Shown: positions 11,302 through 61,197 of the stretch, one piece after another | Numbering within the stretch: the stretch's first letter is position 1 | How the letters are laid out: each line of letters starts with the position of its first letter | Origin: Hoyosella altamirensis | GTDB lineage: Bacteria > Actinomycetota > Actinomycetes > Mycobacteriales > Mycobacteriaceae | Direction: 5' to 3' | Length of the DNA stretch: 64,000 bases | Assembly: GCF_014191505.1 (NCBI RefSeq) | Contig: NZ_JACHWS010000004.1 | Coordinates: forward strand, 58,654-122,653 | Program-made: the position numbers and the translations under genes | Notes under the pieces: model-generated | What the model was told of the DNA's origin: nothing | What the model saw: the letters and a program-made list of their open reading frames with translations, nothing else | Databases searched by the model: none

Positions 11302-11331
11302 CGGGAACATTTCTCGTACGATGTACGTTAA

Positions 11332-12000: not shown

Positions 12001-12006
12001 CGGCGC

Positions 12007-12927: not shown

Positions 12928-12928
12928 C

Positions 12929-15164: not shown

Positions 15165-15946
15165 TTCTTTTGACTGCTCGCCTTCAGCGTCGCTTCTAGC
15201 GAAGCGAGAAGGTCGGAGACGTCCTTATCGAGACTTTCACCGGCGGGTTCAGGTGGTGTATAGGACTCGCCTTGTGCGAGTTTGTTCTCGATGAGTTCAC
15301 GCAGCTTTTCCTGGTATTCGTCGGCATGCTGGTCGGGCTCGAAATCCTTCGTCATAGAGTCGACGACTTGATTGGCCATGTCGAGTTCGGCCTTGCTGAT
15401 CTTCGCCTCTTTCTCGAGTGAGGAGAATTCGGGATCGCGGATCTCGTCGGGCCACAGCAGCGTCTGCACCATCAGCGTTTTTCCTTTGACGCGCAATGCG
15501 GCAAGTCGTGTCTTGCTGCGCAGTGCGAAATGCGCGATCGCGATGCGGTCAGTCCCGGCGAGAGTCTTCTGCAGCAGTTGATATGCCTTGGTTGATTTGC
15601 CGTCGGGTTCGAGATAGTACGCACGATCGAACATGACCGGGTCGAGCTGGTCAGCGGGTACGAACTCGACGACTTCGATTTCGCGGGTGATGTCTTTGGG
15701 TATGCTCGCCAGGTCCTCATCAGTGATGATGACCATTTCGTCATCATCGGAGGTGTACGCCTTCGCTATGTCCCGGAATTCGACCTGCTTTCCGCATTCT
15801 TCGCAAATCCGGCGATATCTGATGCGCCCACGGTCCTCTGCGTGAACCTGGTGGAAACTGATGTCGTGGTCTTCTGTCGCCGCGTACACCTTCACGGGCA
15901 CGTTGACGAGCCCGAAAGTGAGTGCACCTTTCCATATTGAGCGCAT
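15161..15946 (-). CDS. ku: Ku protein (non-homologous end-joining DNA-end-binding protein)
   Basis: MRSIWKGALTFGLVNVPVKVYAAT is the canonical bacterial Ku N-terminus. The track ORF starts upstream at a TTG, so I chose the conserved Met. Confidence 0.9.
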   Translation of the reverse strand: MRSIWKGALTFGLVNVPVKVYAATEDHDISFHQVHAEDRGRIRYRRICEECGKQVEFRDIAKAYTSDDDEMVIITDEDLASIPKDITREIEVVEFVPADQLDPVMFDRAYYLEPDGKSTKAYQLLQKTLAGTDRIAIAHFALRSKTRLAALRVKGKTLMVQTLLWPDEIRDPEFSSLEKEAKISKAELDMANQVVDSMTKDFEPDQHADEYQEKLRELIENKLAQGESYTPPEPAGESLDKDVSDLLASLEATLKASSQKK

Positions 15947-15998
15947 GATCTTAGTATTGCCGACAACCTGTTCCGGGGGTAGCCAACGGAAGGCCTGT

Positions 15999-21604: not shown

Positions 21605-22629
21605 CGGCTGAACTGCTCGATATTGACGGTATCGAAGTCCGGTTGTCGAATCCGGACAAGATCTACTATCCGGCGCTCGGATCGAAGGGCGGGACGAAAC
21701 GCCACCTCGTCGACTACTACCGCACGGTAGCGGAGCGCGGCGCGATTCTTACGGTCCTGCTTGACAGGCCCACGAACCTCCAGCGTTTTCCGGACGGCGT
21801 CGAGGGGGAAGAGATCTATCAGAAGCGGGTCCCGGCGCGACGGCCGCACCATGTCGAATCGTGCACGGTGACTTTTCCGTCCGGCCGGACGGCCGAGGCC
21901 TTACGCGTCAAGAGTGCCGCTGATGTCGTGTGGGCGGCCAATCTCGGTACCGTGACGTTCCATCCTTGGCCGGTCGTGTGTAGAGACACCGACCGTCCTG
22001 ATGAGCTTCGGGTCGATCTCGATCCTCAGCCGGGTACTGGCTTCGCGGAAGCCCGAGTCGTCGCGCGCGACGCGCTGCTGCCGGTACTCAATGAACTTGG
22101 GTACGAGGGTTTCGTCAAAACCTCGGGCGGACGTGGGCTCCACGTGACCATTCCGATCGAACCCAAATGGGACTTCATCGAAGTGCGCCGGGCAGGTATC
22201 GCGCTGGCGCGCGAGGTTGTGCGCCGGAGCGAGGACCTAGCCACAGCGGCGTGGTGGAAGGAAGAACGCGGGAAACGGATATTCCTCGATTACAACCAGA
22301 ACGCTCGGGACCGGACAGTCGCGTCAGCGAACGCGGCGCGTAAAACCCCGATCGCGACTGTTTCAGCTCCACTGACGTGGGACGAACTCGACGATGCCGA
22401 CGCGGACGACTTCACGATCGCCACTGTTCCCGCCCTGCTCAGTGAGCGCGGTGATCCGCATGCGGACCTCCACAAGACGTCGTACTCGATACAAACACTG
22501 CTTGACTGGTTTGCCCGTGACGAGGAGCAGGGCGAGGGGGAACTGCCGTATCCGCCGAACTATCCGAAAATGCCTGGCGAACCGAAACGAGTTCAGCCGA
22601 GCCGAGACCGAGACCGGTTGAGGGACTGA
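21601..22629 (+). CDS. Stand-alone LigD-like primase-polymerase (Prim-PolC), the LigC partner in base-excision-repair gap filling
   Basis: 342 aa homologous to the LigD polymerase domain (RFPDGV, HVTIPI motifs) but with no ligase or PE domains. Translationally coupled to ligC. Confidence 0.8.
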   Translation: MTAELLDIDGIEVRLSNPDKIYYPALGSKGGTKRHLVDYYRTVAERGAILTVLLDRPTNLQRFPDGVEGEEIYQKRVPARRPHHVESCTVTFPSGRTAEALRVKSAADVVWAANLGTVTFHPWPVVCRDTDRPDELRVDLDPQPGTGFAEARVVARDALLPVLNELGYEGFVKTSGGRGLHVTIPIEPKWDFIEVRRAGIALAREVVRRSEDLATAAWWKEERGKRIFLDYNQNARDRTVASANAARKTPIATVSAPLTWDELDDADADDFTIATVPALLSERGDPHADLHKTSYSIQTLLDWFARDEEQGEGELPYPPNYPKMPGEPKRVQPSRDRDRLRD

Positions 22630-30330: not shown

Positions 30331-30987
30331 GTGAGCAACCTTCTTGATGCTGCGCTGAGCTTTCCCGCGGTGCTCTTTACGTTCGCTTTCGTGGTTGTGA
30401 TCGGCTACTGGCTTCTAGTTCTGGTAGGCGGTCTGGGCCTCGACGTCTTCGAGGGGGACACGGAGGCCGCGGAAGCAGAGCCCTCTGGCTGGATGAAAGG
30501 GCTGGACCTCGGTGGGGTTCCTCTGACGGTCGCGCTCTCTCTGTTCGTCGCATTCGCCTGGCTGGTCAGCATCATCGGTTCGGTAATGCTGGGAGGCGTG
30601 AACCTGGCGGGCGCCGCTGCCGCCGCGGCGCTCATCGGTGTGCTTATTGCGGCCGTGGCGATCGGTGCGATCACCACAAAGCTTTTCATTTCCCCGCTCA
30701 AGCGGGTCTTCCGGCACGTTCCGGCACAGTCCCGTTCGGATTTCGTCGGCAAGATCTGCATCATCCGGACCAGTTCGGTGGGGCCGGACTTCGGGCAGGC
30801 CGAAGTCACATCGCCCGATGGTTCGTCCGCTCTCGTGCAGGTTCGGCAGACGGCTGAGCATGCTGCGGAAACCCCGCTCAAGGCGGGGACTTCTGCTTTG
30901 ATTTACGACTACGACGCTGACGGCGAGTTCTTCTGGGTGGCGCCGGTGGATCCCGCTCTCGACAACTTCACACCTGGACAGGCTTGA
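30331..30987 (+). CDS. NfeD-like (YqiJ/YuaF-type) membrane protein with a C-terminal OB-fold domain, the flotillin-operon partner
   Basis: N-terminal TM helices plus a C-terminal beta-rich OB-like segment (GKICIIRTSSVGPDFGQAEVTSPDGSSALVQV). Immediately upstream of flotillin, as in yqiJK and yuaF-floT. Confidence 0.7.
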   Translation: MSNLLDAALSFPAVLFTFAFVVVIGYWLLVLVGGLGLDVFEGDTEAAEAEPSGWMKGLDLGGVPLTVALSLFVAFAWLVSIIGSVMLGGVNLAGAAAAAALIGVLIAAVAIGAITTKLFISPLKRVFRHVPAQSRSDFVGKICIIRTSSVGPDFGQAEVTSPDGSSALVQVRQTAEHAAETPLKAGTSALIYDYDADGEFFWVAPVDPALDNFTPGQA

Positions 30988-31000
30988 GGAAGGGAACACC

Positions 31001-33001
31001 GTGGATACGATCGCCACCAGCTTCGGGATAGTGTTTGCCGCTATCCTGCTGACCGCTTTGGCGGTCCTGTTCATGGTTACGAGGCTGTACAAGAAGGTTC
31101 ATCAGGGCAGCGCTCTGATCGTCTCGAAGCTGAAGAAGGTGGACGTCACCTTCACCGGCACAGTTGTGCTGCCGATATTGCACAAAGCCGAGACAATGGA
31201 CATCTCGGTTAAGACGATCGACATCGAACGAACCGGTCATGACGGGTTGATTTGCCGCGACAACATCCGCGCAGACATCCGCATCACGTTCTTCGTGCGT
31301 GTCAACAAGACAATTGAGGACGTCATCAAGGTCGCGCAAGCGATCGGCACTGAGCGGGCAAGCGATCAGACGACGCTGCAAGTCTTGTTCAACGCCAAAT
31401 TCTCTGAGGCGCTCAAGACTGTCGGTAAGCACCTCGATTTCGAGGACCTTTACACCAAACGCGATGAATTCCGTGATCAGATCGTCCGCGTCATCGGAAC
31501 TGATCTCAACGGGTACAGCCTCGAGGACGCAGCGATCGACTACCTCGAGCAGACACCCATGTCACAGCTCGATGCGAAGAACATCCTCGACGCGCAGGGT
31601 ATTCGCAAGATCACCGAGCTGACAGCAATAGAGAACGTCCGCACCAACGACTACCGGCGCAACGAAGAGAAGGAAATTACCCGGCAGAACGTCGAGGCGC
31701 GTGAGGCAATCCTTGAACTCGAGCGGCAACAGGCTGATGCGGAAGCCAAACAGCGCCGCGAGGTAGATACCGCACAGGCACGCGAGACCGCGGAAACTCA
31801 GCGCGTGCAGGCAGAAGAGCGCCTCAAGTCGGAGAGTGCACGGTTGCGCACTGAAGAGCAGATTGGTGTGCAGGCCCAGAACCAGCAGCGCGAAATCGCC
31901 GTTGCAGAGAAGAACCGTGAACGTGTGATCGCGGTTGAAACGGAGCGGATCGAGAAGGATCGCCTGCTCGAGGTCATCAACCGCGAGCGTGAGACCGAAC
32001 TGCAGCGGATCGCGAAGGATCGCGAAGTGGAGACTGAGCGCCGCTCGGTGTCGGAAGCAACCCGCGAGCGCATTGCGGTCGACAAGACCGTCGCTGAGCA
32101 GGAAGAGAGTATCAATCGCTTGCGCGCGGTCGAGGCCGCTGAGCGGGACCGCCAGGCTGTGGTGATTCGGGCCGAGGGTGAGGCGCAGGAGAACCTCGTC
32201 AAAGACATCAAGGCCGCCGAGGCCGCCGAGACGGCAGCTAAGCACAAGGCCAAAGAACGGCTCACACTCGCCGAAGCAGCACAGCAGGCCGCGGAACTTG
32301 ATGCGCGTGCGAAGATCCGGCTCGCGGAGGGGCAGCAGGCCGAGGTAGCCGCATCGGGTCTCGCTGACGTACAGGTCCGGGAGCGCAACGCCGAAGCGAT
32401 CGAAAAGGTTGGTCGCGCCGAGGCGCAGGTCGAGCGTGAGAAAGCGCTTGCCGGTGCTGACGCCATTCGTGAGAAGCTCAAAGCGGAGTCTGAGGGACTC
32501 ACCGAGAAGGCTGACGCCATGGCGAAGCTCGACGACGCTACCCGGGATCACGAAGAGTACCGGCTGCGCCTCGAGATGGAGAAGGACATCCGCCTCGCGG
32601 GCATCGACGTTCACCGTCAGGTCGCCGAGCATCAGGCAGCCGTTCTCTCTGCGGGGCTCAAGGAAGCGGACATCAATATCGTCGGTGGCGAAAGTGTGTT
32701 CTTCGACCGGCTCATCGGTTCGATCGCGCTTGGTAAGGGAGTCGACGGTTTCGTGAACAACTCCGAGGTTGCGCAAACACTCGGTCAGGGCTGGTTCGAC
32801 GGCTCCCAGAGCTTCTCCGAAGACATTTCGCGTGCGCTGGCAGCTGCGGGCACGGAGGACGTCAAGAATCTCACCGTCTCGGCTCTGCTGCTGAAGTTGA
32901 TCAATGAGGGGAGCCCGCAGTCTGACAAGCTGCGTCAACTACTCGGCAACGCGCGCAAGCTCGGTCTTGCCGACACCCCGGTGACGCAAGTCAACCCATG
33001 A
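31001..33001 (+). CDS. Flotillin-family SPFH/band-7 protein (FloT/YqiK-like) with a long Ala/Glu-rich coiled-coil
   Basis: 666 aa. N-terminal TM segment, SPFH domain, then an extended EA-repeat coiled coil (AEAKQRREVDTAQARETAETQRVQAEERL...). Confidence 0.85.
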   Translation: MDTIATSFGIVFAAILLTALAVLFMVTRLYKKVHQGSALIVSKLKKVDVTFTGTVVLPILHKAETMDISVKTIDIERTGHDGLICRDNIRADIRITFFVRVNKTIEDVIKVAQAIGTERASDQTTLQVLFNAKFSEALKTVGKHLDFEDLYTKRDEFRDQIVRVIGTDLNGYSLEDAAIDYLEQTPMSQLDAKNILDAQGIRKITELTAIENVRTNDYRRNEEKEITRQNVEAREAILELERQQADAEAKQRREVDTAQARETAETQRVQAEERLKSESARLRTEEQIGVQAQNQQREIAVAEKNRERVIAVETERIEKDRLLEVINRERETELQRIAKDREVETERRSVSEATRERIAVDKTVAEQEESINRLRAVEAAERDRQAVVIRAEGEAQENLVKDIKAAEAAETAAKHKAKERLTLAEAAQQAAELDARAKIRLAEGQQAEVAASGLADVQVRERNAEAIEKVGRAEAQVEREKALAGADAIREKLKAESEGLTEKADAMAKLDDATRDHEEYRLRLEMEKDIRLAGIDVHRQVAEHQAAVLSAGLKEADINIVGGESVFFDRLIGSIALGKGVDGFVNNSEVAQTLGQGWFDGSQSFSEDISRALAAAGTEDVKNLTVSALLLKLINEGSPQSDKLRQLLGNARKLGLADTPVTQVNP

Positions 33002-36000
33002 CGGCCACTGCATCATCCACCGGCGAGGCGGACCTCGATGGCGGCACCTACGAAGTGCTCCGTAGCCGCCTCGCCCAGCATGCTGCAGAACTCGCGCGCC
33101 GAGCGGAGTCGCTCAATGCGCAGCGAGTCGAGGCGTTTGGCGGTTCTGAACTCCGCCTGATCGGGACGGAACGCATCCGAACGGAGCACAACTGCGTTCC
33201 GCGCGACATTGTCGCGCTGCCGGCGGGGAGCGACGAGGGCGGGCTGATGCTCTTCGGCTATAACGTCTTCATCGGTCTGAAGCCAGAAACCACAGTGGAG
33301 GACGTGTTCTCGCTACATCGGTTCGTCCGTGAAGGCGACACGTTCCGCTTCGAGGACGCTTCAGGTGAGATGCCAGGGCTGCTGAGTGACAGCACCTTTC
33401 AGCGTCACTTCGCCGAACTGTACCGCTACTACCGAGAGACACGCCTGCTGCAGCTACGCAGGGTCGAAGGCAAGTTGCTCGCTGTTTTTCAGACCGGGGT
33501 GCGGACTGAGGACGTCAAGGTACTGCGGTGGCGCATCAGCACCGACGGGTCAGTCACCTATATCGATAACCGTGGCGAGCGTGACCACGTTTTTCCAGCC
33601 CAGCATGATTTCGAGTGGGTTGAGACAACCCGGGACGATCATGTGCTTGGCCGCCACCCACACATTTCCATTCTCGGTGAGGTCTTCGTCGAGACCGTGC
33701 GCGGCAACCTCACTATCAAGGTCGAAGACAACACGGCAACGGGCGAAGGAATTTACGAGGAGCCAGTTGACGAGCCGCTGCAGAGCCTTGCCGACGCGGA
33801 CGTGCATTTCGCAAAAGTCGGGCCACTCATCATCTTGAAGATCCGGCCATACAATGAAAAAGACTGGCGCTATCTGGTTTTCAACACACGGACGCACGAT
33901 ATCGCCAGGCTTGACGGCATTGGGCAGTCTTGCAGACGGCTCCCGGAGGACCAGGGCCTGATCTTTCCGGGCGGTTATTATCTCGAGACCGGCCTTGCGC
34001 GAACGTTCGATACTGACACCGCTGACCTCGAGTTTGAGCGCGTCGTTCGCTCGAGTAACGGTGAGGACGTCTTGTACGCTTTCCACGCTCGGCGCGAGGG
34101 GCGGACCCTCCTGCTGCCGTACAACGTGATCCGCAAGGAAGTCGCGAATCCGGTCCCGTGCCACGGCTATTCGTTGTTCGACGACGGCACAGCCGTCGTG
34201 TTCCGTGCCGACTCAGACGAGCCAACCCGTGTGCATCCCATGCAGGTCTGGCAGACGCCGTATGAATCCGATGTGTACGCGGCGGCTCAGCCCGCGGGTT
34301 CCGGACCGCTTGAACGCATCGGCAATGCGGACCTTGTGCGCGGTATTTCGGATTGCCTGTCCGTTGCGCGCATGGTGGACGAGATGGCGCCTGCGACAGC
34401 TGTTTTCGAAGCGATGATTGCCGCATGCCGGCGCACTGCAGATAGCTACCACTGGCTGGGTGATGAGAGCGCTGGGGATCTCCTTGAGCCGCTGTCGGAC
34501 CTCCAGTCCACTGCTGAACGGGTGATAGACGAATTCGAGAAGGTCTCCGCGCTGACAGTGCAGGCATCGAAGGCTGTCGACGAATCGGAAGCCGAAATCG
34601 GATCACTGATCCGGATGAGCAGGGGCAGTGCACCGCGCTCGGCAGATGGCTGGGTATCGCTCCTCGCGGATCTGCGGAAACAACAGGGTCACATCGTCAC
34701 ATTGCGGGACCTGCGTTACGTCGATGAGAAGCGACTGGACTCACTCGATGAGCAGCTCTCTGAAGCTCTCGACGGCTCAGGCCGGCGGGCTGTGGAGTTC
34801 CTGAGCGGCGAGGACGCGTTTGAGAGTTTCCACCGAGACATTGAGCAGCTGATCGACGATGCGGACCGCATCGAAACTGTCGCGGAAGCCAAGCCTGTGA
34901 CGGAGCGGCTCTCTGAGCAAGCCGACGGATTGCAGGTAGTGACCCAGATTGTTTCCTCCCTGGATATCGGGGACGCAGTGGTTCGCACCCACATTTTGGA
35001 GCGCATCGGTGAAGTACTCGGTGGAGTGAATCGGGCGCGTGCGACCGTTGAATCGCGACGCAAGGATCTGCTGACGCGCGAAGGCCGTGCGGAATTCGCT
35101 GCCGAGTTTGGACTGCTCGGGCAAGCAATCACCGGGGCGCTCGCAGTAGCTGAAACACCCGACGCGTGTGATGAACAGCTCGGCCGCCTCCTGCTGCAGC
35201 TCGAAAATCTCGAGTCGCGTTTCAGCGAGTTCGACGACTTCCTCGACGAGCTCAGCAGTAAACGCGAAGACGTCTATGAGGCTTTCTCCTCGCGGAAACA
35301 GGCGCTTCTGGACGAGCGCTCACGCCGCGCGGACCGGCTGGTGGACTCGGCGCAGCGCATCCTCGCGTCGGTCAGCCGCCGCGTCGCTGGCATGGACACT
35401 GTCGACGAGGTCAACACGTATTTTGCGTCTGACCCGATGGTGGCGAAGCTGCGCAGCCTCGCCGACGAGTTACGCGGTATCGGCGATTCGGTCCGTGCTG
35501 AGGAAATTGATGGCCGAATCAAAGCAGCGCGCCAGGAAGCTGGCCGTGCCCTTCGTGACCGGCAGGATCTGTATGGCGACAGTGGCGAAACCATCAGGCT
35601 CGGGAAGCACCGGTTCGCGGTCAACACGCAGGCAATCGACCTGACCCTCGTTCCACACTCGGTGGACGGCGAGACTCGGATGTCCTTCGCTATTACGGGC
35701 ACGGACTACCGGTCTCTTGTGGCTGACCCCGAGTTCGCCGCCACTGCTCCCTACTGGAATCAGCTGCTCGTCTCGGAAACCAGCGACGTCTACCGCGCGG
35801 AGTTCCTTGCGACCTCGTTGCTGGCTGACGCGGAGCGCGAGGGCAAACTCGACGAACTCCATGAAGCGCTCGTGGCGGAGGGTGAACTCGCCGCCTACGT
35901 GCGCAGGGCAGCGGAATCTCGATATAACGAAGGCTACGAGCGTGGTGTACACGACCACGACGCCACCGCAATTCTCAGCGAGTTGCTGCGCCTGCACGCC

Positions 36001-37959
36001 GGTGCCGGGCTCCTGCGGTTCCCTCCCGGAGCGAGATCAGCTGCACAGCTTTTCTGGGCGTTTGATGCACGCCCCGACCGCCGCGCCGCGTGGACTACCC
36101 GCGCCGCGTCCCTGGCGCGAGCTCGCTCATCGTTCCGTCGCCCGGACGCGGTCGACGCGCTGGCGAGGGAACTGAACGGCGCGGTGGCTGCTTTCGTCGA
36201 GGAGCGCCGGATCCCCGTGGCTGATGCAGACCTCGAACTTGTTGGTGAATACCTGTTCGAAGAGCTCGCAACGGGTGCGCCACGCTTTGTGACGAGTTCT
36301 GGTGCGCGCACCCTGGTTGACCGGTTTCATCGGGCTCTCGGTGGTTCGGTCGCCAAGTCTCGCCTGGACTTCGATGAGGATCTGCGTTCGCTTGCCGATG
36401 ACGTGACTGCCCGATATCAGCTTGTGCGCGCGTGGCTGTCGGCGTATCTGGCGACTGAGGACGCTGGCGAGATGGTTGCTGATCTCGCTGAGGCTATCGC
36501 GATAGAAGTGTGTGGTAGCGCTGTCGACCGGTATGAGTCCTCCGCATCTCTCACCGGCGTGGCTGAGCCGATGCTCGGATCGCATCCGCGCATCCACGAC
36601 CGCAAGTTCGCGTTCCGGCTCGATGATCTGCTGTCACATACGCGTCACTATCGCGCGGTCCGGGTACCGGGGTTCCGCGCCTTCCAGCAGCAGCGGAACG
36701 CCCTCGTCGGGACGGAACGGAAAAAGCTGCGCCTCGACGAGTACACGCCTACGGTGATGAGCGGGTTTGTGCGCAACAGACTGCTCGACGACGCGTACCT
36801 ACCGCTGATTGGTGACAACCTCGCAAAGCAGCTGGGAGCCACTGGCGACAGTCGCCGGACCGACCAGTCAGGGCTGCTTCTGCTGATCTCCCCTCCGGGC
36901 TACGGTAAGACGACCCTGATGGAGTACGTAGCGAATCGCCTCGGCGTTGTTTTCGTCAAGGTGAACGGTCCCGCGCTAGGGCACTACGTCACCTCCGTCG
37001 ACCCGGCTGAAGCGCCCAATGCGACTGCACGTCAGGAAGTTGAGAAAATCAACTTTGCTTTGGAAATGGGCAATAACGTCTTGCTCTATCTCGACGACAT
37101 CCAGCACACTTCACCGGAACTGCTGCAGAAGTTCATCTCCCTTTGTGACGCGCAACGGCGAATGGAAGGCGTCTGGAACGGGCGGACGCGCACGTACGAC
37201 ATGCGTGGGAAACGGTTCGCGGTGTGCATGGCCGGTAACCCGTACACCGAGCAGGGCAAGCGCTTTCGGGTGCCCGACATGCTGGCGAACCGTGCGGACG
37301 TCTGGAACCTGGGTGACGTGCTCTCTGGGCGAGAGCATCTTTTCGCCCTCAGCTACATAGAGAACGCGCTGACCTCAAACTCAGTGCTCGCTCCGCTGGC
37401 CGCCCGGGACAGATCGGACATTGACCTCCTCGTACGCCTCGCAGGTGGGGATAGCACAGTCCGCCCCGATCAATTGTCGCACCCGTATTCAGCCGCGGAA
37501 CTCGATGAGGTGCTCGCGGTGATGAGCAAGATGATCCGGGTCCAAGAGATTGTGCTTGCCGTCAACCAGGCCTACATCGCGTCCGCGGCGACAGCCGACG
37601 CGAACCGGACCGAGCCGCCATTCCAGTTGCAGGGGTCGTACCGGAACATGGGCCGCCTCGCGGAACGAATCGCGCCGGTGATGAATGATGAGGAGCTTGA
37701 AGCGGTCATCGACGACCATTACCTCGGCGAGGCGCAAACTCTCACCTCCGGTGCGGAATCGAATCTGCTGAAGCTGGCAGAACTCCGCGGCCGACTCGCC
37801 CCTGAGCAGCAACAACGCTGGGAGGAAGTGAAGGCAGGCTTCCGGCGAGCCCAAGCGCTGGGCGGTGCGGAGGACGATCCCATGGCCCGTGCTGTCGGCG
37901 CAGTGGGGCTCCTCGCGGATCGCGTTGGGGGAATTGAATCCGCCCTGCGGGAACGCTGA
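32998..37959 (+). CDS. Giant (1653-aa) soluble protein with a C-terminal AAA+ ATPase module (RuvB/clamp-loader-like P-loop), function unknown
   Basis: Start ATGA overlaps the flotillin stop (translational coupling). Walker A is SPPGYGKTTL at about 36892-36920 and Walker B is LLYLDDIQH at about 37083-37109. The long N-terminal region of about 1250 aa has no recognisable motif. Confidence 0.7.
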   Translation: MTATASSTGEADLDGGTYEVLRSRLAQHAAELARRAESLNAQRVEAFGGSELRLIGTERIRTEHNCVPRDIVALPAGSDEGGLMLFGYNVFIGLKPETTVEDVFSLHRFVREGDTFRFEDASGEMPGLLSDSTFQRHFAELYRYYRETRLLQLRRVEGKLLAVFQTGVRTEDVKVLRWRISTDGSVTYIDNRGERDHVFPAQHDFEWVETTRDDHVLGRHPHISILGEVFVETVRGNLTIKVEDNTATGEGIYEEPVDEPLQSLADADVHFAKVGPLIILKIRPYNEKDWRYLVFNTRTHDIARLDGIGQSCRRLPEDQGLIFPGGYYLETGLARTFDTDTADLEFERVVRSSNGEDVLYAFHARREGRTLLLPYNVIRKEVANPVPCHGYSLFDDGTAVVFRADSDEPTRVHPMQVWQTPYESDVYAAAQPAGSGPLERIGNADLVRGISDCLSVARMVDEMAPATAVFEAMIAACRRTADSYHWLGDESAGDLLEPLSDLQSTAERVIDEFEKVSALTVQASKAVDESEAEIGSLIRMSRGSAPRSADGWVSLLADLRKQQGHIVTLRDLRYVDEKRLDSLDEQLSEALDGSGRRAVEFLSGEDAFESFHRDIEQLIDDADRIETVAEAKPVTERLSEQADGLQVVTQIVSSLDIGDAVVRTHILERIGEVLGGVNRARATVESRRKDLLTREGRAEFAAEFGLLGQAITGALAVAETPDACDEQLGRLLLQLENLESRFSEFDDFLDELSSKREDVYEAFSSRKQALLDERSRRADRLVDSAQRILASVSRRVAGMDTVDEVNTYFASDPMVAKLRSLADELRGIGDSVRAEEIDGRIKAARQEAGRALRDRQDLYGDSGETIRLGKHRFAVNTQAIDLTLVPHSVDGETRMSFAITGTDYRSLVADPEFAATAPYWNQLLVSETSDVYRAEFLATSLLADAEREGKLDELHEALVAEGELAAYVRRAAESRYNEGYERGVHDHDATAILSELLRLHAGAGLLRFPPGARSAAQLFWAFDARPDRRAAWTTRAASLARARSSFRRPDAVDALARELNGAVAAFVEERRIPVADADLELVGEYLFEELATGAPRFVTSSGARTLVDRFHRALGGSVAKSRLDFDEDLRSLADDVTARYQLVRAWLSAYLATEDAGEMVADLAEAIAIEVCGSAVDRYESSASLTGVAEPMLGSHPRIHDRKFAFRLDDLLSHTRHYRAVRVPGFRAFQQQRNALVGTERKKLRLDEYTPTVMSGFVRNRLLDDAYLPLIGDNLAKQLGATGDSRRTDQSGLLLLISPPGYGKTTLMEYVANRLGVVFVKVNGPALGHYVTSVDPAEAPNATARQEVEKINFALEMGNNVLLYLDDIQHTSPELLQKFISLCDAQRRMEGVWNGRTRTYDMRGKRFAVCMAGNPYTEQGKRFRVPDMLANRADVWNLGDVLSGREHLFALSYIENALTSNSVLAPLAARDRSDIDLLVRLAGGDSTVRPDQLSHPYSAAELDEVLAVMSKMIRVQEIVLAVNQAYIASAATADANRTEPPFQLQGSYRNMGRLAERIAPVMNDEELEAVIDDHYLGEAQTLTSGAESNLLKLAELRGRLAPEQQQRWEEVKAGFRRAQALGGAEDDPMARAVGAVGLLADRVGGIESALRER

Positions 37960-38605: not shown

Positions 38606-38693
38606 CTGCCGTTACGGATTTGTAGGAAAGTGGTGCTGAGCAGACAACACCTATCCTGGCATGTTTGTAAAATAGCTGCGCATTCGACTTGTC

Positions 38694-39722
38694 GTGAATG
38701 CCGGTCCGGGAAGGGACTCTCGCATGGCTGATCCGGCATTGGCAGTAGCCTCGAATATCTCGGAGCTAGTGGGGCGAACACCCCTGGTAAATCTTGCGCG
38801 GCTTTTTCCCGAAGCACCCCAGACCGTTCTGATGAAACTCGAGATGTTCAATCCGGGTTTCAGCGCGAAGGACCGTACCGCGGCCTCCCTGGTTGAAAGC
38901 GCCTTTGCGGCCGGCCAACTCCAGCTTGGAGGCACGGTGGTCGAGTCGAGCTCGGGGAATCTTGGCCTCGCGCTCGCGCGATCTTGCCTGCAGCGGGAAG
39001 TCCGGTTTATTTGCGTCGCCGATTCGCGGACGAATAAGGCCACGATCGCGATGATGCGCGCGCTGGGGGCCGATGTCAGAATTGTGGAGATTGACCAAGC
39101 GGGTGGATCAGACTTGCTTGCTGCTCGTCTGAAGGAAGTCAGGCGGATAGTCGGCTCAATTCCCGGCGCAGTGAATCTCAATCAGTATGAAAATCCAGCT
39201 AATCCGCAGGCTCACGAGTTCGGCACCATGGCGGAGATCGCAGAACAAGCAAATGGCAGGATCGATCAGCTTTTCGTCGCAACAAGCACGACCGGTACGT
39301 TGACCGGATGCCGCAACTATATAGACAAAAAAGGCCTGAAAACGCGCGTTACGGCGGTCGATTCGGAGGGTAGTGCGCTTTTCGGCGGGAGCCCGCACAC
39401 GCGGTATCTCCCGGGTTTAGGTGCGGGATTGGAAACACACCTTTCCACTCGTGCACGCCCGGACCAAGTGATGCGGGTTTCCGAAGCTGACTGCGTACGC
39501 GGCTGCAGGTTACTGGCGCGGCGCGAAGCGATCATCGCGGGCGCGTCAACGGGAGGAGTAGTTGCTGCCGTGCGCAGCCGACTGCCGAGACTCGATCCGT
39601 CCGATACGGTCGTGCTGATCGCCCATGACGGCGGCATGCCGTACGCCGAAACCGTGTACGACGATGCGTGGGTCCATGAGGTGCTCGGGCTCACGAGGGA
39701 GCAGGCCGAAGGATGGCTGTAA
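38694..39722 (+). CDS. Cysteine-synthase-family PLP enzyme, SbnA-like (2,3-diaminopropionate-precursor synthase-like)
   Basis: PLP-lysine motif SAKDRTAASL. The overall CysK/SbnA fold is 342 aa. Overlaps the next gene. Confidence 0.7.
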   Translation: MNAGPGRDSRMADPALAVASNISELVGRTPLVNLARLFPEAPQTVLMKLEMFNPGFSAKDRTAASLVESAFAAGQLQLGGTVVESSSGNLGLALARSCLQREVRFICVADSRTNKATIAMMRALGADVRIVEIDQAGGSDLLAARLKEVRRIVGSIPGAVNLNQYENPANPQAHEFGTMAEIAEQANGRIDQLFVATSTTGTLTGCRNYIDKKGLKTRVTAVDSEGSALFGGSPHTRYLPGLGAGLETHLSTRARPDQVMRVSEADCVRGCRLLARREAIIAGASTGGVVAAVRSRLPRLDPSDTVVLIAHDGGMPYAETVYDDAWVHEVLGLTREQAEGWL

Positions 39723-41293
39723 GCACTCGTGGGGCTGCGTTCGCAGTTGCCATCGTTGGTGCCGGCCCGAAGGGCCTGTTCGCGCTTGAGTCCATCCTGG
39801 CGCATTCGCGTGGTACGCAAGGGCAGCTGCGCGTCGACCTTTTTGATCCGCAGCCGCCGGGTCACGGTGCTGCGTACCAGCCTTCGCTGCCGGAGTATTT
39901 GCGTCTCAACGTCGATGCGGACATTGTTTCAGTCTGGCCGCAGCACCGGACGAGTATGAGTCGGCCGACATGGCGAGTGTGGGCCCGGGAAGCTGAACCG
40001 CTGATCGCTTCCGAGCGTTTCCCGCCCCGTGCCGCCGTCGGCACGTATCTCGAGAGGTCGTTCCACCGCATGGTTTCCGCTGCGCCGGGGGTAACGGTGC
40101 GCCACGTAGCATCAGCTGTCACCGGCTTGAGACGAGCTCAGGACGGAAAATGGCACGTGATATCCGGTAGCGAACTCGGGCCGTACGACGAGGTGCTGCT
40201 GACTGTGGGCCACGGGTCATCATGGGACGGAGCGCTCGCCAGGGGTGCGGGTCGCACGGTCAGTTCCGTATACCCGATCCAGAACCTCGATGTGATTGCG
40301 CCGCACTCCCGGGTTCGGTTCCGCGGCGCGGCACTGACTTTCATCGATGGGGCGCTGGTTCTGACAGAGGGCCGTGGTGGCCGTTTCGAGGGGCGGGGTG
40401 CGAATTGCCGTTATGTTCCCAGTGGGAGGGAGCCGCGTGCTCTCTTCCCGAGTTCACGTTCGGGCGGTTTTCTGCACGCTAAACCACAGATCACCCTGCC
40501 TCGGGATGCAGTTGAGGCGGCGTCCAAGGAGTGGGCGGCTGTCGGAGTTGGTGACGTGGGGTCACTGGAGGAAGCGATCGTCGGCGCGGCTCACGCGATT
40601 CTCTGGGAATTGGGTACGCCTGTCGACCGAGGACGGATTTCGGAAAGTTTGCGGACCGGCCGGGACCCCGCGCAAACATCCCGAGCGAGGGATTCGGGTG
40701 CTCGAGCGGTCGCCGAATTCCGTGACTCGGTGGAGGTCAGCCGTGGCGAGAAATTACCTGGTCCCGCGTATGCGCTGGGACGCGCGTGGGCGATTGGTTA
40801 CCGCACGGTAGTCGACCGGTACCCGGGGCCCGACATGCAGGCTCGGGACTGGGCGGTGTTCATGTCGCTCGCCACCACGCTAGAGCGTTTCGCATTCGGG
40901 CCGCCGCTGGTGAACGCCGAGAAACTACTGGCGCTGATTGACTCGGGTGTTGTTGTACCAGACTTCATCATAGGAGAACTGGATGAGGGTGGACCGTACG
41001 ATCACCATGTCGACGCGGTCCTGCCCCCGCCTGGCTGGCGCCAGATTGTCGACCCGTTGTTTGAGTCCTTGCTTGCGTCCGGTGACGTGTGGATTCCAGA
41101 CGGGCGCCGGGGCGTCATGATCACGGATGACGCGCAAGTGTTGGGGCTGCGGGGCGCTACGGCCGGGCTGTCCGCGCTGGGCCGCCCCACCGAAGACACG
41201 GTGATCGGGAATGACACGCTGAATCGCGGGCTGCATGATCATCCTGAACGATGGGCAGCCCGAGTGATAAGGCGAATCGAGGGGACCGCATGA
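39713..41293 (+). CDS. FAD/NAD(P)-binding protein (Rossmann GAGPKG), uncharacterised oxidoreductase of the y4xP-y4yA-type clusters
   Basis: 526 aa. N-terminal dinucleotide-binding motif VAIVGAGPKG with no other assignable domain. Confidence 0.55.
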   Translation: MAVSTRGAAFAVAIVGAGPKGLFALESILAHSRGTQGQLRVDLFDPQPPGHGAAYQPSLPEYLRLNVDADIVSVWPQHRTSMSRPTWRVWAREAEPLIASERFPPRAAVGTYLERSFHRMVSAAPGVTVRHVASAVTGLRRAQDGKWHVISGSELGPYDEVLLTVGHGSSWDGALARGAGRTVSSVYPIQNLDVIAPHSRVRFRGAALTFIDGALVLTEGRGGRFEGRGANCRYVPSGREPRALFPSSRSGGFLHAKPQITLPRDAVEAASKEWAAVGVGDVGSLEEAIVGAAHAILWELGTPVDRGRISESLRTGRDPAQTSRARDSGARAVAEFRDSVEVSRGEKLPGPAYALGRAWAIGYRTVVDRYPGPDMQARDWAVFMSLATTLERFAFGPPLVNAEKLLALIDSGVVVPDFIIGELDEGGPYDHHVDAVLPPPGWRQIVDPLFESLLASGDVWIPDGRRGVMITDDAQVLGLRGATAGLSALGRPTEDTVIGNDTLNRGLHDHPERWAARVIRRIEGTA

Positions 41294-42750
41294 ACAGCGA
41301 TATCCGGAAGATGTGCGTCGGGCTCCCACCGCTCACCGCGCGGCTGGAAAACTGGATGAGCGAACTGCTTTCAGATCCCACAGCGACCGAGCGGGTAGTG
41401 AATGAATACGGCTCACCGGTCAATGTGATCCACACGGGGGCTCTCCGGCGAAACGCTGCTGAGCTCACCGATGCAGCCGCATTCCACGGAGTCGATCTGC
41501 GGGTGTTTTTCGCGCGGAAAGCCAACAAAGCACTGAGCTTTGTCGATGCGTCCAACCAGGCTGGCCTTGGCGTCGACGTCGCCTCTGAGCGTGAATTACG
41601 TCAGGTCCTCAAACGGGGAGTGCCGCCACAGAACGTCATCGTCACGGCCGCCGTGAAACCACCGCGACTGCTCGAGCTGAGCCTGTCGACGGGCGTAACG
41701 GTAGCCCTCGACAATTATGACGAAGCGGACGCGTATCTCGCCCTCACAGCTGCGCTGGGCGCTGGCGGAGGACCGGCACCGGTCGCGCTGCGTATCGCGT
41801 CTCAGAATGGAGACATCGCTCCGACACGCTTTGGTCTCTCGGTGCCGGACTGGCTTGAGTGGCTGGATGCGCGCGATACTGCCGGGTTCCGCATCGACGG
41901 CATTCACTTTCACCTCCACGGATACTCCGCGCGTGATCGTGCACTGGTTCTCAGCGAGGCTGTCGCGGCCATAGACGACCTTCGGCAGCGCGGGCACAGT
42001 CCCACGTTCATCGATATGGGCGGTGGCATCCCAATGAGCTACCTCAATGACGAAGCCCAATGGAACGCTTTCGAAAGTGCACACAAGGCCGCGACCCTCG
42101 GTGAGGGCCCTCCATTGACGTGGCGGAACGATGGATTTGGGCGACGTGCGGAGGCCGGTGCTCTGGTGGGTACCCGAAATACATACCCGTACTACCAGGC
42201 ACCTGTCCGGGGGGATTGGTTCAGCGCACTGGTCGACGCGTATTCGAACTCGAGTGATCGGCCCCGCACGCTTGCGTCCGATTTGCGGGAACGCGGATTG
42301 CATCTGCGGTGCGAACCTGGCCGTTCACTGCTCGACGGGTGTGGTGTGACGTTCGCACGGGTGCTGTTCCGCAAGAGGACCAGCGATGGCATTCCGCTGG
42401 TCGGCTTGGAGATGAACCGCACGCAATGCCGATCGACGTCAGCGGATTTTCTGTTAGATCCTGTTCTCGTGCGAGGCCCACGATCGGGCCACCCGAATCA
42501 ACCGTTCTCCGGGTACCTGGTCGGTGCGTACTGTGTCGAGGATGAGCTGATTTTGCGGCGGGAACTGAGCTTTCCCCATGGAGTCGCCGTGGGAGACATT
42601 GTGGCACTGCCCAACACAGCCGGATACTTGATGCACATTCTCGAAAGTGAATCGCATCAGCTTCCATTGGCACACAACGTGGTGGCCCGCGACGGCGGTT
42701 TCGTCGAGGATGATCTCGGGGGTGCGGCTACGCGCGAACCGCGGCTTTAG
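41290..42750 (+). CDS. Fold-type III PLP-dependent decarboxylase, Y4yA/SbnH-like (Orn/DAP/Arg decarboxylase family 2)
   Basis: Alanine-racemase-like TIM-barrel N-terminus (FFARKANKAL, with the PLP lysine) plus a C-terminal beta domain. ATGA overlap with the upstream gene. Confidence 0.7.
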   Translation: MNSDIRKMCVGLPPLTARLENWMSELLSDPTATERVVNEYGSPVNVIHTGALRRNAAELTDAAAFHGVDLRVFFARKANKALSFVDASNQAGLGVDVASERELRQVLKRGVPPQNVIVTAAVKPPRLLELSLSTGVTVALDNYDEADAYLALTAALGAGGGPAPVALRIASQNGDIAPTRFGLSVPDWLEWLDARDTAGFRIDGIHFHLHGYSARDRALVLSEAVAAIDDLRQRGHSPTFIDMGGGIPMSYLNDEAQWNAFESAHKAATLGEGPPLTWRNDGFGRRAEAGALVGTRNTYPYYQAPVRGDWFSALVDAYSNSSDRPRTLASDLRERGLHLRCEPGRSLLDGCGVTFARVLFRKRTSDGIPLVGLEMNRTQCRSTSADFLLDPVLVRGPRSGHPNQPFSGYLVGAYCVEDELILRRELSFPHGVAVGDIVALPNTAGYLMHILESESHQLPLAHNVVARDGGFVEDDLGGAATREPRL

Positions 42751-44159
42751 CGTTCGATGACCGCCAGCCCGTGCGGATCTGCTGCCGACACGCCGCTGCT
42801 GTCGATGTCGACCGTATTCGGATTGTCTTCCATGACGAGCAAATCGCTTTCGGTCCACGTGAAGGCGCGGCAATCGTCGCTGACGGTGAGGATCGCGACA
42901 CCCGGCGTCCGATCACCGTCGACCAGGCTTGTGATGGCTGTCAGCGGCTCCGCACCGCGCAGGCTGACGAATACCTTTCCGTCCCTGAGATAAGCGAGGT
43001 CCGGAGCCGGATTGGGGCTGAATTCAGTGGCCATCGATTCCGTCGCGACAACTTCGCGTGCCTCGATGTCAATGACATTGATGTCATTGCTTACTCGCAT
43101 GAATGAGAGCGCGTACTCCCGTTCATCCTCGTCGGTGCAGAAGGCTGTGCCGTGCGTATCCTCACCGGGCAACTCGAGAGTGAAAGGTTCCGGGAACGCA
43201 CCATCATTGACTCCGCTGGTGTCGTGGAAAAACAGGAAATCGTCGCCTCCAGACGCGCCACTCTCACCGTTGGTAAGCATCAAGTCATCAGAGACGGGGA
43301 ACGCGCCGCACCCGGCGCCCGGCATCGTGTCCGCCGGATGTACTTGCACGACCTCCATGGGCGTGCTTCCGTCAGCAGTCCCGGTATCCACAATCACGAG
43401 GCCGCCCTGAGCCAGGGTGACGTAGGCGAAACGCCCGTCGGAGGTGAACTCGTGGCAGATCGGACGAACAAAGTCACTGTCGAGTTCAGCCGCGTAATCC
43501 TCCAGCACAAGTGTTTCGGTGAGTTCGTAGGAGTCCGAACTGAAGTCCGTCTGGATCTTGTGGAGAAAGCCGGAGTCGTCACCGTGATTCATGTCAGCAA
43601 CGATGACGAAGCTGTCATCTGGGCTCGCGACGCTCGCATGCGCCGCGTGCGAGCCGCCCGCACCGTCAAACCCTTCCGCCGTGTTGACACAGCCGGTGAT
43701 TTCGCGGGTCTCGATGTCCATGAAGTGAGTATCACCGGACGCCACATTGGAGATGATCATGTGCGTCGGTGGCGTTGAATTGTTTGGCAGAACCATGTGC
43801 GGCCGCTGTGCGAGTTCGCACCCCGCGGCCTCCGCGGCGGCCCCAAGATCGATGACTTCAGCGGTTGCGTCTGAGGGCGCATCGCTGCCCAGTTCGTCCC
43901 CGTTCCAGATGTACAGCAGGCCGCCACCGTCCTCTACGGTGTCAGCCTGGTCGAGTGCCCACACTTCGAAGCTCGCGGCGGTTACCTCGTCAGCAGGACC
44001 AGTCGCAGGCGAGGGAGCGGTCTCATCATCCACAGGGGTTGACTGGCAGGCGGCGAGAAAGAAAGCTGCGGCGACGGCGGTGATAACGGCGCCTGACTTA
44101 CGGGTGTAAGCGAACACGATGGAAGCCCTTCGCAGGAAAGTCGCGATTAGTGGCCGCAT
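42747..44159 (-). CDS. Secreted lipoprotein, probable beta-propeller-like fold, unknown function
   Basis: Lipobox FFLAAC after an N-terminal signal. Acidic, Gly/Asp-rich with repeated FxxD/HGD segments. Last gene of the ABC-importer operon. Confidence 0.55.
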   Translation of the reverse strand: MRPLIATFLRRASIVFAYTRKSGAVITAVAAAFFLAACQSTPVDDETAPSPATGPADEVTAASFEVWALDQADTVEDGGGLLYIWNGDELGSDAPSDATAEVIDLGAAAEAAGCELAQRPHMVLPNNSTPPTHMIISNVASGDTHFMDIETREITGCVNTAEGFDGAGGSHAAHASVASPDDSFVIVADMNHGDDSGFLHKIQTDFSSDSYELTETLVLEDYAAELDSDFVRPICHEFTSDGRFAYVTLAQGGLVIVDTGTADGSTPMEVVQVHPADTMPGAGCGAFPVSDDLMLTNGESGASGGDDFLFFHDTSGVNDGAFPEPFTLELPGEDTHGTAFCTDEDEREYALSFMRVSNDINVIDIEAREVVATESMATEFSPNPAPDLAYLRDGKVFVSLRGAEPLTAITSLVDGDRTPGVAILTVSDDCRAFTWTESDLLVMEDNPNTVDIDSSGVSAADPHGLAVIER

Positions 44160-59658: not shown

Positions 59659-61197
59659 CTACCGCGGTACGGCAAGCCTGGTCGGAGTGAGTCGGCCGCG
59701 CAGTGTGACCGACGTCGTGGGAAGCCAGCGCGACGACTCGTATGCGTCGGCTTTCTGCAACACCTCGAACGAGGCAAGAACACGCCCAGGCCACGTCTTC
59801 GCCAGCTCTTTGAGCCGCGCAGCCTCATTGACGGGATCGCCGATCACCGTGTATTCCAGGCGGTTGCGCGCGCCGACGTTGCCGGCGACCACACGTCCGG
59901 CTGATACGCCTATTCCGAAGTTGAGCGTCGTGGTGGCGTGGATGCGGGGCCGCAGCTCTCGAGCAGTAGCCAGCGCGGCACTCGCAACGTTGGGGAGGGC
60001 GACGGGCGCGCCAAAAACGGCGAGCGCGGCGTCGCCTGTGAACTTGTTCACCATTCCGCCGTGGGCATGCACAGTATCGACGACGACCTCAAAGAACTCA
60101 TTCAGCATCGCGACCACTCGGTAGGGTGGCAGCGCGTCGATGCGTTTGCTCGAACCCACAAGGTCCACAAACATCACCGCCACCTCCCGTGACTCGCCGC
60201 CTAGCGACCCGCCGCGGTCCAGAACCTCCCGGACAACATCAGTACCGACACGACGCCCAAACATGTCCGAGAGCTTCTCGCGTTCCGCGAGGCCATGAAC
60301 CATCTGGTTGAATCCATACTGGAGGCGGCCGGTCTCCGACCCATCGTAGATCGGCACTGAGATGTCGTAGCGGCCGCTTTTAACAGCTTCCATCGCCGCG
60401 CTGACCTGCTTCACTGGATCCGAGATCGACCGCGCTACTACCGCCATGCCAAGGAACCCGACCACGATGGTGAGAATGCCAAGTATCGCGACCGCGGTCG
60501 CTGTCTGGTCGGTGTCAGGAAAGATCGACGACAAGAACCGGAAGCTCACGACGAGAACGATCCAGAATAGTGGCAGTGCTGCCGTGACTATCCACATGGT
60601 GAGAAGCCGCATGGTGACCGAGGTGGCCGACCGGGCGTCGATGCTGACACCGTGCATCGCATCCGAGATCAATCGCCGCAGAATGCGTTCGGCGATGAAG
60701 TAGCTGATCGCGCAGCATGTGAGCCCCACCGACAGAAATGTCAGGATCACCATCAGTGTCAACTGTGGGCTGTTGATTCGTGCGACGCTGATGGCAAATG
60801 CCACGGTGACGGCGATCCACAGCGATGCGATCAGAGCTGTCTGGCGGGCTGGAGCGCTCACGATGAGAGCGTGCTGACGCGGATTGGGCATTCCGCCCTG
60901 TTCCATCCACCGGAAGATCGGCCGCCCGGCCCAGGCTGAAACCGCGACGCCGACAGCAAGCGCGAGTGGCAGAAGTGTTGAGATCAACACAGTATTCGAG
61001 CTGCGAATGTCAGGAGTGATGACGGCATTCGCGGGATGCGGAAGAACGTACCGGAGCAGAGCAAAACTCAGGAGAACCCCGAGACCGTTCGTGAAGATCA
61101 GTGACGCGCCATAAGCCAGCGTGAATGGCTTGGTGAACTGATTGAAAATCGGGACTACCGATTCCGGCAGTTCTGGCAGGCGAACCGGGCGCGTCAT
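59659..61197 (-). CDS. Class III adenylate/guanylate cyclase with 6TM-HAMP N-terminus (Rv1318c/1319c/1320c type)
   Basis: 512 aa with a 6-TM segment, HAMP and a C-terminal CHD (FVDLVGSS, FTGDAALAVFGAP). Confidence 0.8.
   Translation of the reverse strand: MTRPVRLPELPESVVPIFNQFTKPFTLAYGASLIFTNGLGVLLSFALLRYVLPHPANAVITPDIRSSNTVLISTLLPLALAVGVAVSAWAGRPIFRWMEQGGMPNPRQHALIVSAPARQTALIASLWIAVTVAFAISVARINSPQLTLMVILTFLSVGLTCCAISYFIAERILRRLISDAMHGVSIDARSATSVTMRLLTMWIVTAALPLFWIVLVVSFRFLSSIFPDTDQTATAVAILGILTIVVGFLGMAVVARSISDPVKQVSAAMEAVKSGRYDISVPIYDGSETGRLQYGFNQMVHGLAEREKLSDMFGRRVGTDVVREVLDRGGSLGGESREVAVMFVDLVGSSKRIDALPPYRVVAMLNEFFEVVVDTVHAHGGMVNKFTGDAALAVFGAPVALPNVASAALATARELRPRIHATTTLNFGIGVSAGRVVAGNVGARNRLEYTVIGDPVNEAARLKELAKTWPGRVLASFEVLQKADAYESSRWLPTTSVTLRGRLTPTRLAVPR

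Follow-up and report, generated by a model that had tools for sequence, protein, structure and literature searches.

What do three overlapping genes make when they place a flavoprotein between two pyridoxal phosphate (PLP) enzymes? We addressed this question for a locus of the actinomycete Hoyosella altamirensis, within a stretch of 64,000 nucleotides (nt) of contig NZ_JACHWS010000004.1 (positions 58,654 to 122,653), here called the window. An earlier reading of the letters alone (the sequence-only reading) had proposed that the locus encodes an SbnA-like enzyme, a flavin adenine dinucleotide (FAD)/NAD(P)-binding protein and a decarboxylase, which together could yield a diaminopropionate- or diamine-derived metabolite. 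A check of the open reading frames (ORFs) of the window revealed three co-directional, overlapping ORFs on the + strand, at 38724-42750:

38724-39722, + strand: gene A, predicted SbnA-type fold-II PLP beta-replacement enzyme, 332 amino acids (aa)
39713-41293, + strand: gene B, predicted FzmM/CreE-type class B flavin-dependent N-monooxygenase with a seemingly remodelled substrate chamber, 526 aa
41290-42750, + strand: gene C, Y4yA-clade fold-III PLP-dependent decarboxylase, 486 aa

The answer that we tentatively favour, with nearly even confidence, is that this cassette would convert phosphoserine into a 2,3-diaminopropionate-type adduct, which would then be N-oxygenated and decarboxylated; we infer an ethylenediamine-type compound as the product.

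The three coding sequences are interlocked. Genes A and B have 10 nt in common (ATGGCTGTAA, 39713-39722), and genes B and C share an ATGA (41290-41293); the sequence-only reading had placed the ATGA correctly and had counted 9 nt for the first overlap. The longest ORF of gene A begins with a GTG and spans 38694-39722. The ATG at 38724 is most likely the start, since GGGAAGGGA lies just before it and the resulting protein has 332 aa, which is also what RefSeq gives for H. altamirensis and H. subflava. The products of A, B and C are identical to RefSeq WP_064438442, WP_064438441 and WP_064438440, respectively, and H. subflava DQS3-9A1 is syntenic with the cassette region. Within the A-B-C block, promoter-like and terminator-like sites were no more frequent than expected by chance. 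The third-position GC content of the cassette genes is 0.65-0.67, against 0.70-0.74 for most flanking genes (0.68 for the upstream DedA gene), a weak hint of a foreign origin that would fit the plasmid-borne copies found elsewhere.

A scan with the B profile, using one genome per species, returned 189 loci. The best 79 were inspected; four were cut by contig ends, leaving 75 assessable loci. Genes A, B and C were present in the same order and on the same strand in 72 of them, in Actinomycetota and Gimesia. The hosts are Hoyosella, Rhodococcus, Kocuria, Brachybacterium, Microbacterium, Propionibacteriaceae, Corynebacterium falsenii, metagenome-assembled genomes of Gaiellales and Solirubrobacterales, and the planctomycete Gimesia; many of the hosts belong to marine or salt-tolerant genera. 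The trio is also annotated on plasmids of Sulfitobacter pontiacus (Alphaproteobacteria) and on one plasmid of Chondrinema litorale (Bacteroidota), and a further copy lies on the Tsukamurella plasmid pTpau01. The cassette spans at least four bacterial phyla (Actinomycetota, Planctomycetota, Bacteroidota and the Alphaproteobacteria lineage). The flanking genes differ from genus to genus in all genera inspected. Clustering of the neighbours showed genus-level synteny only and no fourth conserved gene, with genes called by a program based on third-position GC that missed genes B and C of the window and failed on the lower-GC Gimesia loci.

Natural fusions were also found. In C. falsenii, B and C form a single reading frame of 969 aa, which was confirmed in the DNA (L072:9995-12904). 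Among the top 150 of the 50%-identity representatives of the family there are six further B-C fusions and one A-B fusion (P0387, P0393, P0398, P0418, P0460, P0479 and P0471); the N-monooxygenase-decarboxylase proteins have 941-1087 aa, and the SbnA-like-N-monooxygenase protein has 813 aa. The adjacency of A, B and C is far beyond chance. The overlapping codons, the kept gene order and the Rosetta-stone fusions bear out the tight coupling that had been read from the gene overlaps, and together they speak for a single pathway in which B stands between A and C.

The product of gene A belongs to Pfam PF00291 (PALP; 197 bits). Its top-ranked NCBIfam model was TIGR03945 (SbnA_fam), with 348.3 bits for a cut-off of 349.95. 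With the cysKM model the score was 198 bits (cut-off 344), and the cysteine synthase, cystathionine beta-synthase (CBS) and cysteate synthase models of NCBIfam gave 150-198 bits, all far under their cut-offs; A does not, therefore, group with CysK/CysM. The best matches in the PDB were SbnA (5D84, E 3e-56) and CmnB (8IF7, E 1e-52). The lysine that forms the Schiff base with PLP lies in FSAKDRT, as had been seen from the SAKDR motif, and aligns with K47 of SbnA. In the alignment, residues K49, R135, Y155 and S188 of A correspond to K47, R132, Y152 and S185 of SbnA; across 73 cassette orthologues the first three are conserved in 100% and S188 in 93%. In SbnA, Arg132, Tyr152 and Ser185 account for the selective binding of O-phosphoserine (PMC12414870). 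The A proteins of the cassettes have a median identity of 54% to each other and of 39-40% to SbnA (39.5%) and CmnB, and are 31-34% identical to paralogues of the cysteine-synthase/CBS/CysK type; the Sulfitobacter and Chondrinema orthologues are annotated as sbnA by NCBI. Judged by its conserved residues, A is an SbnA-type enzyme that retains the O-phosphoserine-selecting positions, in line with the likeness to SbnA originally proposed.

Gene B, which the sequence-only reading had left as a 526-aa protein of unknown function, could be assigned to a family. It matches Pfam PF13454, and its family profile matched PDB entry 8CP2 with an E-value of 4e-46. This structure is that of the L-aspartate N-hydroxylase of Streptomyces sp. 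V2, a nitrosuccinate-forming enzyme of the FzmM/CreE type (PMC10404684). When the AlphaFold2 (AF2) model of B (pLDDT 91.4) was compared with known structures using Foldseek, 8CP2 was matched with an E-value of 2e-33 and a TMq of 0.78, whereas SidA, PvdA, KtzI and flavin-containing monooxygenase structures followed far behind (E about 1e-9 to 1e-11). The alignment of the B profile with FzmM-like proteins had an hhalign probability of 100% over 497 columns; the search for FzmM homologues gave mostly truncated or frameshifted proteins. The model predicts the three domains of a class B monooxygenase, including a helical substrate domain, as in FzmM. An N-terminal GAGPKG motif for FAD, a second dinucleotide motif (RGAALTFID) and GRGG are present, and N66, which corresponds to the catalytic Asn N62 of FzmM, is invariant in the family. 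By its modelled fold and its catalytic residues, B can be classed as an FzmM/CreE-type flavin N-monooxygenase. Since B is of this type, the pathway most likely has an N-oxygenation step, which had not been foreseen.

The predicted substrate chamber of B appears to differ from that of FzmM. In FzmM, aspartate is contacted by R13, R276, R416, R577 and N413, and the arginine cluster includes R409 and R412 (PMC10404684). MAFFT mapping of these residues was unreliable in the helical domain, and hhalign was added. R13 and R266 of FzmM correspond to lysines in B (K20 and K257), the sole residues of that set kept conservatively. The other FzmM residues meet variable, hydrophobic or gapped positions: the columns of R276 and R409 vary within the B family, R412, N413, R416 and R577 face gaps, and R593 and R597 line up with variable, mostly acidic positions. 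The B family has an invariant set of its own, namely E494, D495, D501, R466, R491, R505 and H508. Identity between B and FzmM is 23-24%, whereas within the B family it is at least 35%. The loss of the aspartate-binding residues, together with the family's own invariant set, suggests a substrate other than free aspartate. We concluded that B is probably a class B N-monooxygenase and not an aspartate N-hydroxylase, from a helical-domain alignment of low confidence.

The product of gene C is recognised by Pfam PF02784 in its N-terminal barrel alone. The same barrel was the only part to align with LysA (TIGR01048), at 90.5 bits for a cut-off of 297.9, so that C does not fall with LysA; the best diaminopimelate (DAP) decarboxylase structure is 21% identical. 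The H. subflava orthologue is named "Y4yA family PLP-dependent enzyme" by NCBI, and no Y4yA model was among the matches of C in the NCBIfam scan. Over its full length C is 31% identical to the Y4yA protein of the Mycobacterium avium plasmid pMAH135 (E 4e-53), and it is about 30% identical to a Y4yA-like unannotated locus on the Sinorhizobium fredii NGR234 plasmid NC_012586.1. The closest Foldseek neighbours of the AF2 model (pLDDT 90.0) were DAP decarboxylases and D-Orn/Lys decarboxylases (E about 1e-23), and the model is about equidistant from DAP decarboxylases, D-Orn/Lys decarboxylase, SbnH and FslC. SbnH ranked 36th among the fold matches, with 17% identity, and was not among the sequence matches at E<=0.001. 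Of the earlier description as a Y4yA/SbnH-type enzyme, the kinship with Y4yA stood, whereas the likeness to SbnH is one of superfamily and serves as an analogy. Invariant in 68 orthologues are the PLP lysine K77, the HxH pair H206 and H208, the GGG phosphate loop (244-246), E342/R345 of the EPGR motif, the active-site Cys C415 and the GAY-type Tyr Y446. A segment, MNRTQCRS, is invariant in the C clade of the cassettes and is lacking in Y4yA proteins linked to SbnB, which hints at a substrate unlike theirs. C is a Y4yA-clade fold-III decarboxylase, neither a LysA nor a close relative of SbnH.

Several known systems resemble parts of the cassette. In the staphyloferrin B module of Staphylococcus aureus (SbnA/SbnB/SbnH), as here, an SbnA enzyme of the O-phosphoserine type comes first and a fold-III PLP decarboxylase comes last, for which a diaminopropionate (Dap)-type scaffold is the presumed substrate in the cassette. 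Unlike that module, the cassette has a flavin N-monooxygenase and lacks SbnB, the synthetases for nonribosomal peptide synthetase (NRPS)-independent siderophores (NIS; SbnC/E/F) and transporters. A tblastn search of the window with an SbnB-like ornithine cyclodeaminase returned nothing (best E 2.1), which agrees with the absence of an SbnB partner noted before, and no gene of the ornithine cyclodeaminase family was found in any sampled cassette neighbourhood. Likewise, Pfam scans of all window ORFs of about 400 aa or more and of most ORFs of 300-400 aa revealed no IucA/IucC or NRPS gene, as had been stated; a few ABC-transporter ORFs of 340-410 aa were annotated through their H. subflava orthologues instead. 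No NIS synthetase or NRPS was present in the sampled cassette neighbourhoods.

The y4xP-y4xO-y4yA cassettes of rhizobial and mycobacterial plasmids share with our cassette the decarboxylase family and a cysteine-synthase-like PLP enzyme in first place. The motifs YPYxQxP, PNTAGY and ESxxHQxPL are common to gene C and the pMAH135 Y4yA protein, and the pMAH135 cassette consists of a cysteine-synthase-like gene, an ornithine cyclodeaminase, Y4yA and a MATE exporter. The middle enzyme of these cassettes is SbnB-like, whereas that of ours is a flavoprotein; MATE, MFS, ArsR/SmtB and CsoR-like genes adjoin the y4yA-type plasmid cassettes but not this one. The y4xP/y4xO/y4yA cassettes are uncharacterised (PMC3973906). 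With FzmM/CreE (8CP2), B shares the predicted three-domain fold, the GxGxxG FAD motif, RGxxLxFxD, GRGG and the catalytic Asn. It differs in lacking the arginine cluster and Asn413, in having no CreD/FzmL partner, and in being placed between two PLP enzymes, to which it is sometimes fused. A gene for a CreD/FzmL-type nitrosuccinate lyase was found neither among the genes called around the locus in seven sampled genomes nor in the annotations of the Sulfitobacter and Chondrinema plasmids.

In the biosynthesis of desferrioxamine (DesA/DesB) and rhizobactin 1021 (RhbB/RhbE), a PLP decarboxylase and an NADPH/FAD-dependent N-hydroxylase yield an N-hydroxy-diamine. The DesB/RhbE-type hydroxylases belong, however, to the SidA/PvdA group (PF13434), to which B is a distant match (E about 1e-9, TM about 0.46). 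All diamine-hydroxamate clusters known to us contain an acyltransferase and a NIS synthetase, and use C3-C5 diamines derived from lysine, ornithine or 2,4-diaminobutyrate. The cluster for [S,S]-ethylenediamine disuccinate (aes) of Amycolatopsis japonicum reportedly combines SbnA-like, SbnB-like and DAP-decarboxylase-like genes to form an ethylenediamine core, and is said to be regulated by Zur and to include transport genes; we know of no flavin N-monooxygenase in it. The cassette has the end enzymes of the Sbn and y4yA-type systems and the middle enzyme of FzmM/CreE, and matches no system as a whole. In the open-access literature we found no description of it, and one may exist in a subscription journal; a bioinformatics paper on dabABC and Dap does not mention flavoproteins or decarboxylases.

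Based on these enzymes, the following route can be proposed. Gene product A would turn O-phospho-L-serine into the PLP-bound aminoacrylate, as its conserved residues suggest, and would add an amine nucleophile to it, possibly L-glutamate by analogy with SbnA and CmnB, to give an intermediate of the 2,3-diaminopropionate type, namely an N-(2-amino-2-carboxyethyl) adduct. B, which holds the position of the NAD-dependent SbnB in related cassettes, would then oxygenate a nitrogen of this scaffold at the expense of NADPH and O2; its fold and catalytic residues point to such chemistry, and the scaffold is its presumed substrate. The bridging secondary amine might be N-hydroxylated, and dehydration or nitrone hydrolysis would release L-Dap or N3-hydroxy-Dap together with 2-oxoglutarate; alternatively, B may hydroxylate a primary amine. 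Finally C, with its intact catalytic motifs, would remove the alpha-carboxylate of what we take to be its substrate. The pathway would thus end in a small compound of the ethylenediamine type that most likely bears an N-O function, for instance N-hydroxy-ethylenediamine or an N-hydroxy/aminoethyl amino acid. Both the gene order and the A-B and B-C fusions agree with the proposed order of A, B and C. That A-B-C is an autonomous, translationally coupled biosynthetic operon fed by primary metabolites alone belongs to this proposal, and the two taken jointly fall, in our judgement, just short of an even chance.

Several observations weigh against the proposed route. What A takes as nucleophile, what B takes as substrate and in which order the reactions run are all inferred. 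To spend NADPH and O2 on the task that SbnB performs with NAD+ would be energetically wasteful. Gene product A is 1.65 bits under the NCBIfam equivalog cut-off for SbnA, and the mapping of the helical domain of B onto FzmM is a low-identity profile alignment made without superposed coordinates, hence of low confidence. Three of the 75 assessable loci, all from Brevibacterium (L037, L060 and L066), carry B without A or C. Lastly, the sampled genomes do not share an exporter, a regulator or a downstream tailoring gene beside the cassette.

A bolder version of the proposed route, to which we give somewhat less credence, would make B the first flavin N-monooxygenase to act on a diaminopropionate scaffold or on one of the N-(2-amino-2-carboxyethyl)-glutamate type. 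The cassette would then be a full portable route from phosphoserine to an undescribed N-oxygenated two-carbon diamine, organised as a fused or channelled complex and spread horizontally across Actinomycetota, Planctomycetota, Bacteroidota and Alphaproteobacteria. Candidate products would be N-hydroxy-ethylenediamine, 2-nitroethylamine, an oxime or an N-hydroxy aminopolycarboxylate chelator.

The alternative that survives best, although it is unlikely, is that B is a flavin-dependent replacement for SbnB, which would release L-Dap by oxidative cleavage, so that C would form ethylenediamine or another diamine or polyamine without an N-O function. B does occupy the slot of the ornithine-cyclodeaminase-type SbnB in the sister cassettes of mycobacterial plasmids, the window lacks SbnB, and A retains SbnA features. 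However, every relative of the B fold that has been characterised is a class B monooxygenase that inserts oxygen, B keeps the catalytic Asn throughout its family, and the invariant Arg-containing segment that sets C apart from SbnB-linked Y4yA proteins suggests another substrate.

Somewhat less likely still is a precursor module for a hydroxamate siderophore or metallophore following the logic of DesA/DesB or RhbB/RhbE, in which A and then C would produce a diamine and B would N-hydroxylate it, with the acyltransferase and the NIS synthetase encoded elsewhere in the genome. Diamine hydroxamates such as desferrioxamine and rhizobactin 1021 are canonically made by a decarboxylase paired with a flavin N-hydroxylase, and B-C fusions do occur; the invariant acidic residues of B could bind an ammonium group. 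Nevertheless, in no lineage sampled was an acyltransferase, IucA/IucC, a TonB/ABC uptake gene or an exporter conserved beside the cassette, no IdeR/Zur box was found upstream, and the release of L-Dap would still need an SbnB-like step.

We consider sulfur chemistry improbable. A would here make cysteine or cysteate from O-phosphoserine, C would decarboxylate either of these and B would be an S-oxygenase, so that an osmolyte such as taurine, hypotaurine or a relative would result. In favour of this reading, class B flavin monooxygenases are able to oxygenate both nitrogen and sulfur, the cysteine synthase superfamily includes A, and many of the hosts are marine or salt-tolerant. Against this, A reaches 348 bits with the SbnA model while the cysteine and cysteate synthase models, at 162-198 bits, remain far under their cut-offs; it is closer to SbnA and CmnB (39-40%) than to the CBS/CysK-type paralogues, and the nearest relative of B is an N-hydroxylase.

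It is more doubtful yet, and indeed very improbable, that B is a genuine L-aspartate N-hydroxylase whose nitrosuccinate would give nitrite or 3-nitropropionate and react with a Dap-type product of A, as in alanosine biosynthesis. The nearest solved structure of B is of the FzmM type, and there is a precedent in the alanosine cluster, in which SbnA/B and CreE/D homologues reportedly occur together (bioRxiv 10.1101/763607). However, the residues that hold aspartate in FzmM appear lost in the B family, the identity to FzmM is low (23-24%), and the sampled neighbourhoods have no conserved gene for a CreD/FzmL-type lyase, an NRPS or a carrier protein. Finally, a chance row of a housekeeping CysK, an unrelated flavoprotein and a LysA, to which some database names of the cassette proteins ("cysteine synthase", "diaminopimelate decarboxylase") might point, is effectively refuted by scores far under the CysK, CysM and LysA cut-offs, by the fusions, and by a trio that is kept from phylum to phylum amid varying flanks.

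All three enzyme families are known ones, and their combination has no described product or role. The cassette is compact (three genes, 4 kb), self-contained and recurrent across distant phyla and plasmids, and its genes are at times fused; taken together, these traits are typical of a complete pathway under selection. Its elucidation would assign a function to a large orphan branch of PF13454 flavoproteins (the wider B family has 6161 cluster representatives at E<=1e-3 and 1141 at E<=1e-30) and to one clade of the uncharacterised Y4yA decarboxylases. It would also serve as a test of whether a flavin monooxygenase can replace SbnB in diaminopropionate chemistry. The N-oxygenating route probably leads to a new small N-O metabolite, be it a chelator, a signal, an antimetabolite or a building block. 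Given its small size, the cassette is directly testable by heterologous expression, and the natural fusions are useful constructs for biochemistry.

The region upstream of gene A was then considered for regulatory elements, and one conserved block stood out:

38633-38658, + strand: upstream block GTGCTGAGCAGACAACACCTATCCTG, 26 nt, containing the palindrome GTGnTGA-N4-TCAnCAC

One position of this block differs in H. subflava and H. rhizosphaerae, whereas the neighbouring intergenic DNA diverges. The block occurs once in the window, with 0 occurrences expected by chance, and is a candidate operator or promoter element of the operon. Neither the block nor the upstream region had a match in Rfam, and no riboswitch was detected. 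IdeR, Zur and CRP boxes, sought upstream of the cassette with consensus sequences, scored no better than in shuffled sequence. With neither an IdeR/Zur box above that level nor a conserved exporter or metalloregulator beside the cassette, the metal link that had been put forward found no support. In Brachybacterium the cassette is preceded by a different conserved motif, the near-palindromic CGACCGTTCGGT(A/C)C, at 87-239 nt from gene A (loci L010, L023, L029, L041-L043, L049, L052, L075 and L079), and the differing motifs suggest lineage-specific regulators.

Downstream, gene C is met by a convergent gene (42747-44159, - strand) for a 470-aa predicted secreted or lipoprotein-like protein without a Pfam or NCBIfam match. 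The 3' ends of the two genes overlap by 4 nt, which leaves no space for a terminator. By exact look-up, the members of the cluster of this protein come from Hoyosella and one metagenome read set only.

Two kinds of neighbour were weighed as a functional context and rejected. Genes for DedA, a CDP-alcohol phosphatidyltransferase, phosphatidylserine decarboxylase and cardiolipin synthase lie nearby in Hoyosella, Rhodococcus and Brevibacterium; in the last genus, the solo B gene is followed by one for a cardiolipin-synthase-like phospholipase D-type protein (9989-13319 in the three loci). Molybdenum-cofactor genes were seen in Propioniciclava only: in Propioniciclava sp. MC1595 (L088:1-12839) the cassette lies in the middle of a cluster of molybdenum-cofactor biosynthesis and respiratory nitrate reductase (narHJI) genes, right after a ThiS/MoaD-like gene. 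Since neither the phospholipid nor the molybdenum-cofactor context recurs across lineages, both were taken as coincidental.

Just upstream of the cassette, an ORF of 1653 aa was considered as a missed NRPS and rejected; it encodes a DUF3686/DUF7902/AAA ATPase. It forms part of an apparent operon (30331-37959, + strand) with a 218-aa membrane protein without a Pfam match and a 666-aa SPFH/Band-7 protein with a long coiled coil. The SPFH and ATPase genes overlap by 4 nt, and the operon is kept in H. subflava and does not lie beside the cassette elsewhere.

The remainder of the window contains further gene sets. Two sets for non-homologous end joining lie close together on the + strand: at 15861-18251 a full-length LigD of 796 aa with primase-polymerase, phosphoesterase and ligase parts, and at 20546-22629 a split pair of an ATP-dependent ligase and a LigD-type primase-polymerase. 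A purine catabolism region (1505-13954) encodes an amidohydrolase, FAD and Fe-S/molybdopterin subunits of the xanthine dehydrogenase type, a purine/allantoin permease, a polysaccharide-deacetylase-like protein and an allantoicase. At 59659-62726 (- strand), two genes in tandem with a 4-nt overlap encode paralogous HAMP-domain adenylate/guanylate cyclases of 512 and 510 aa.

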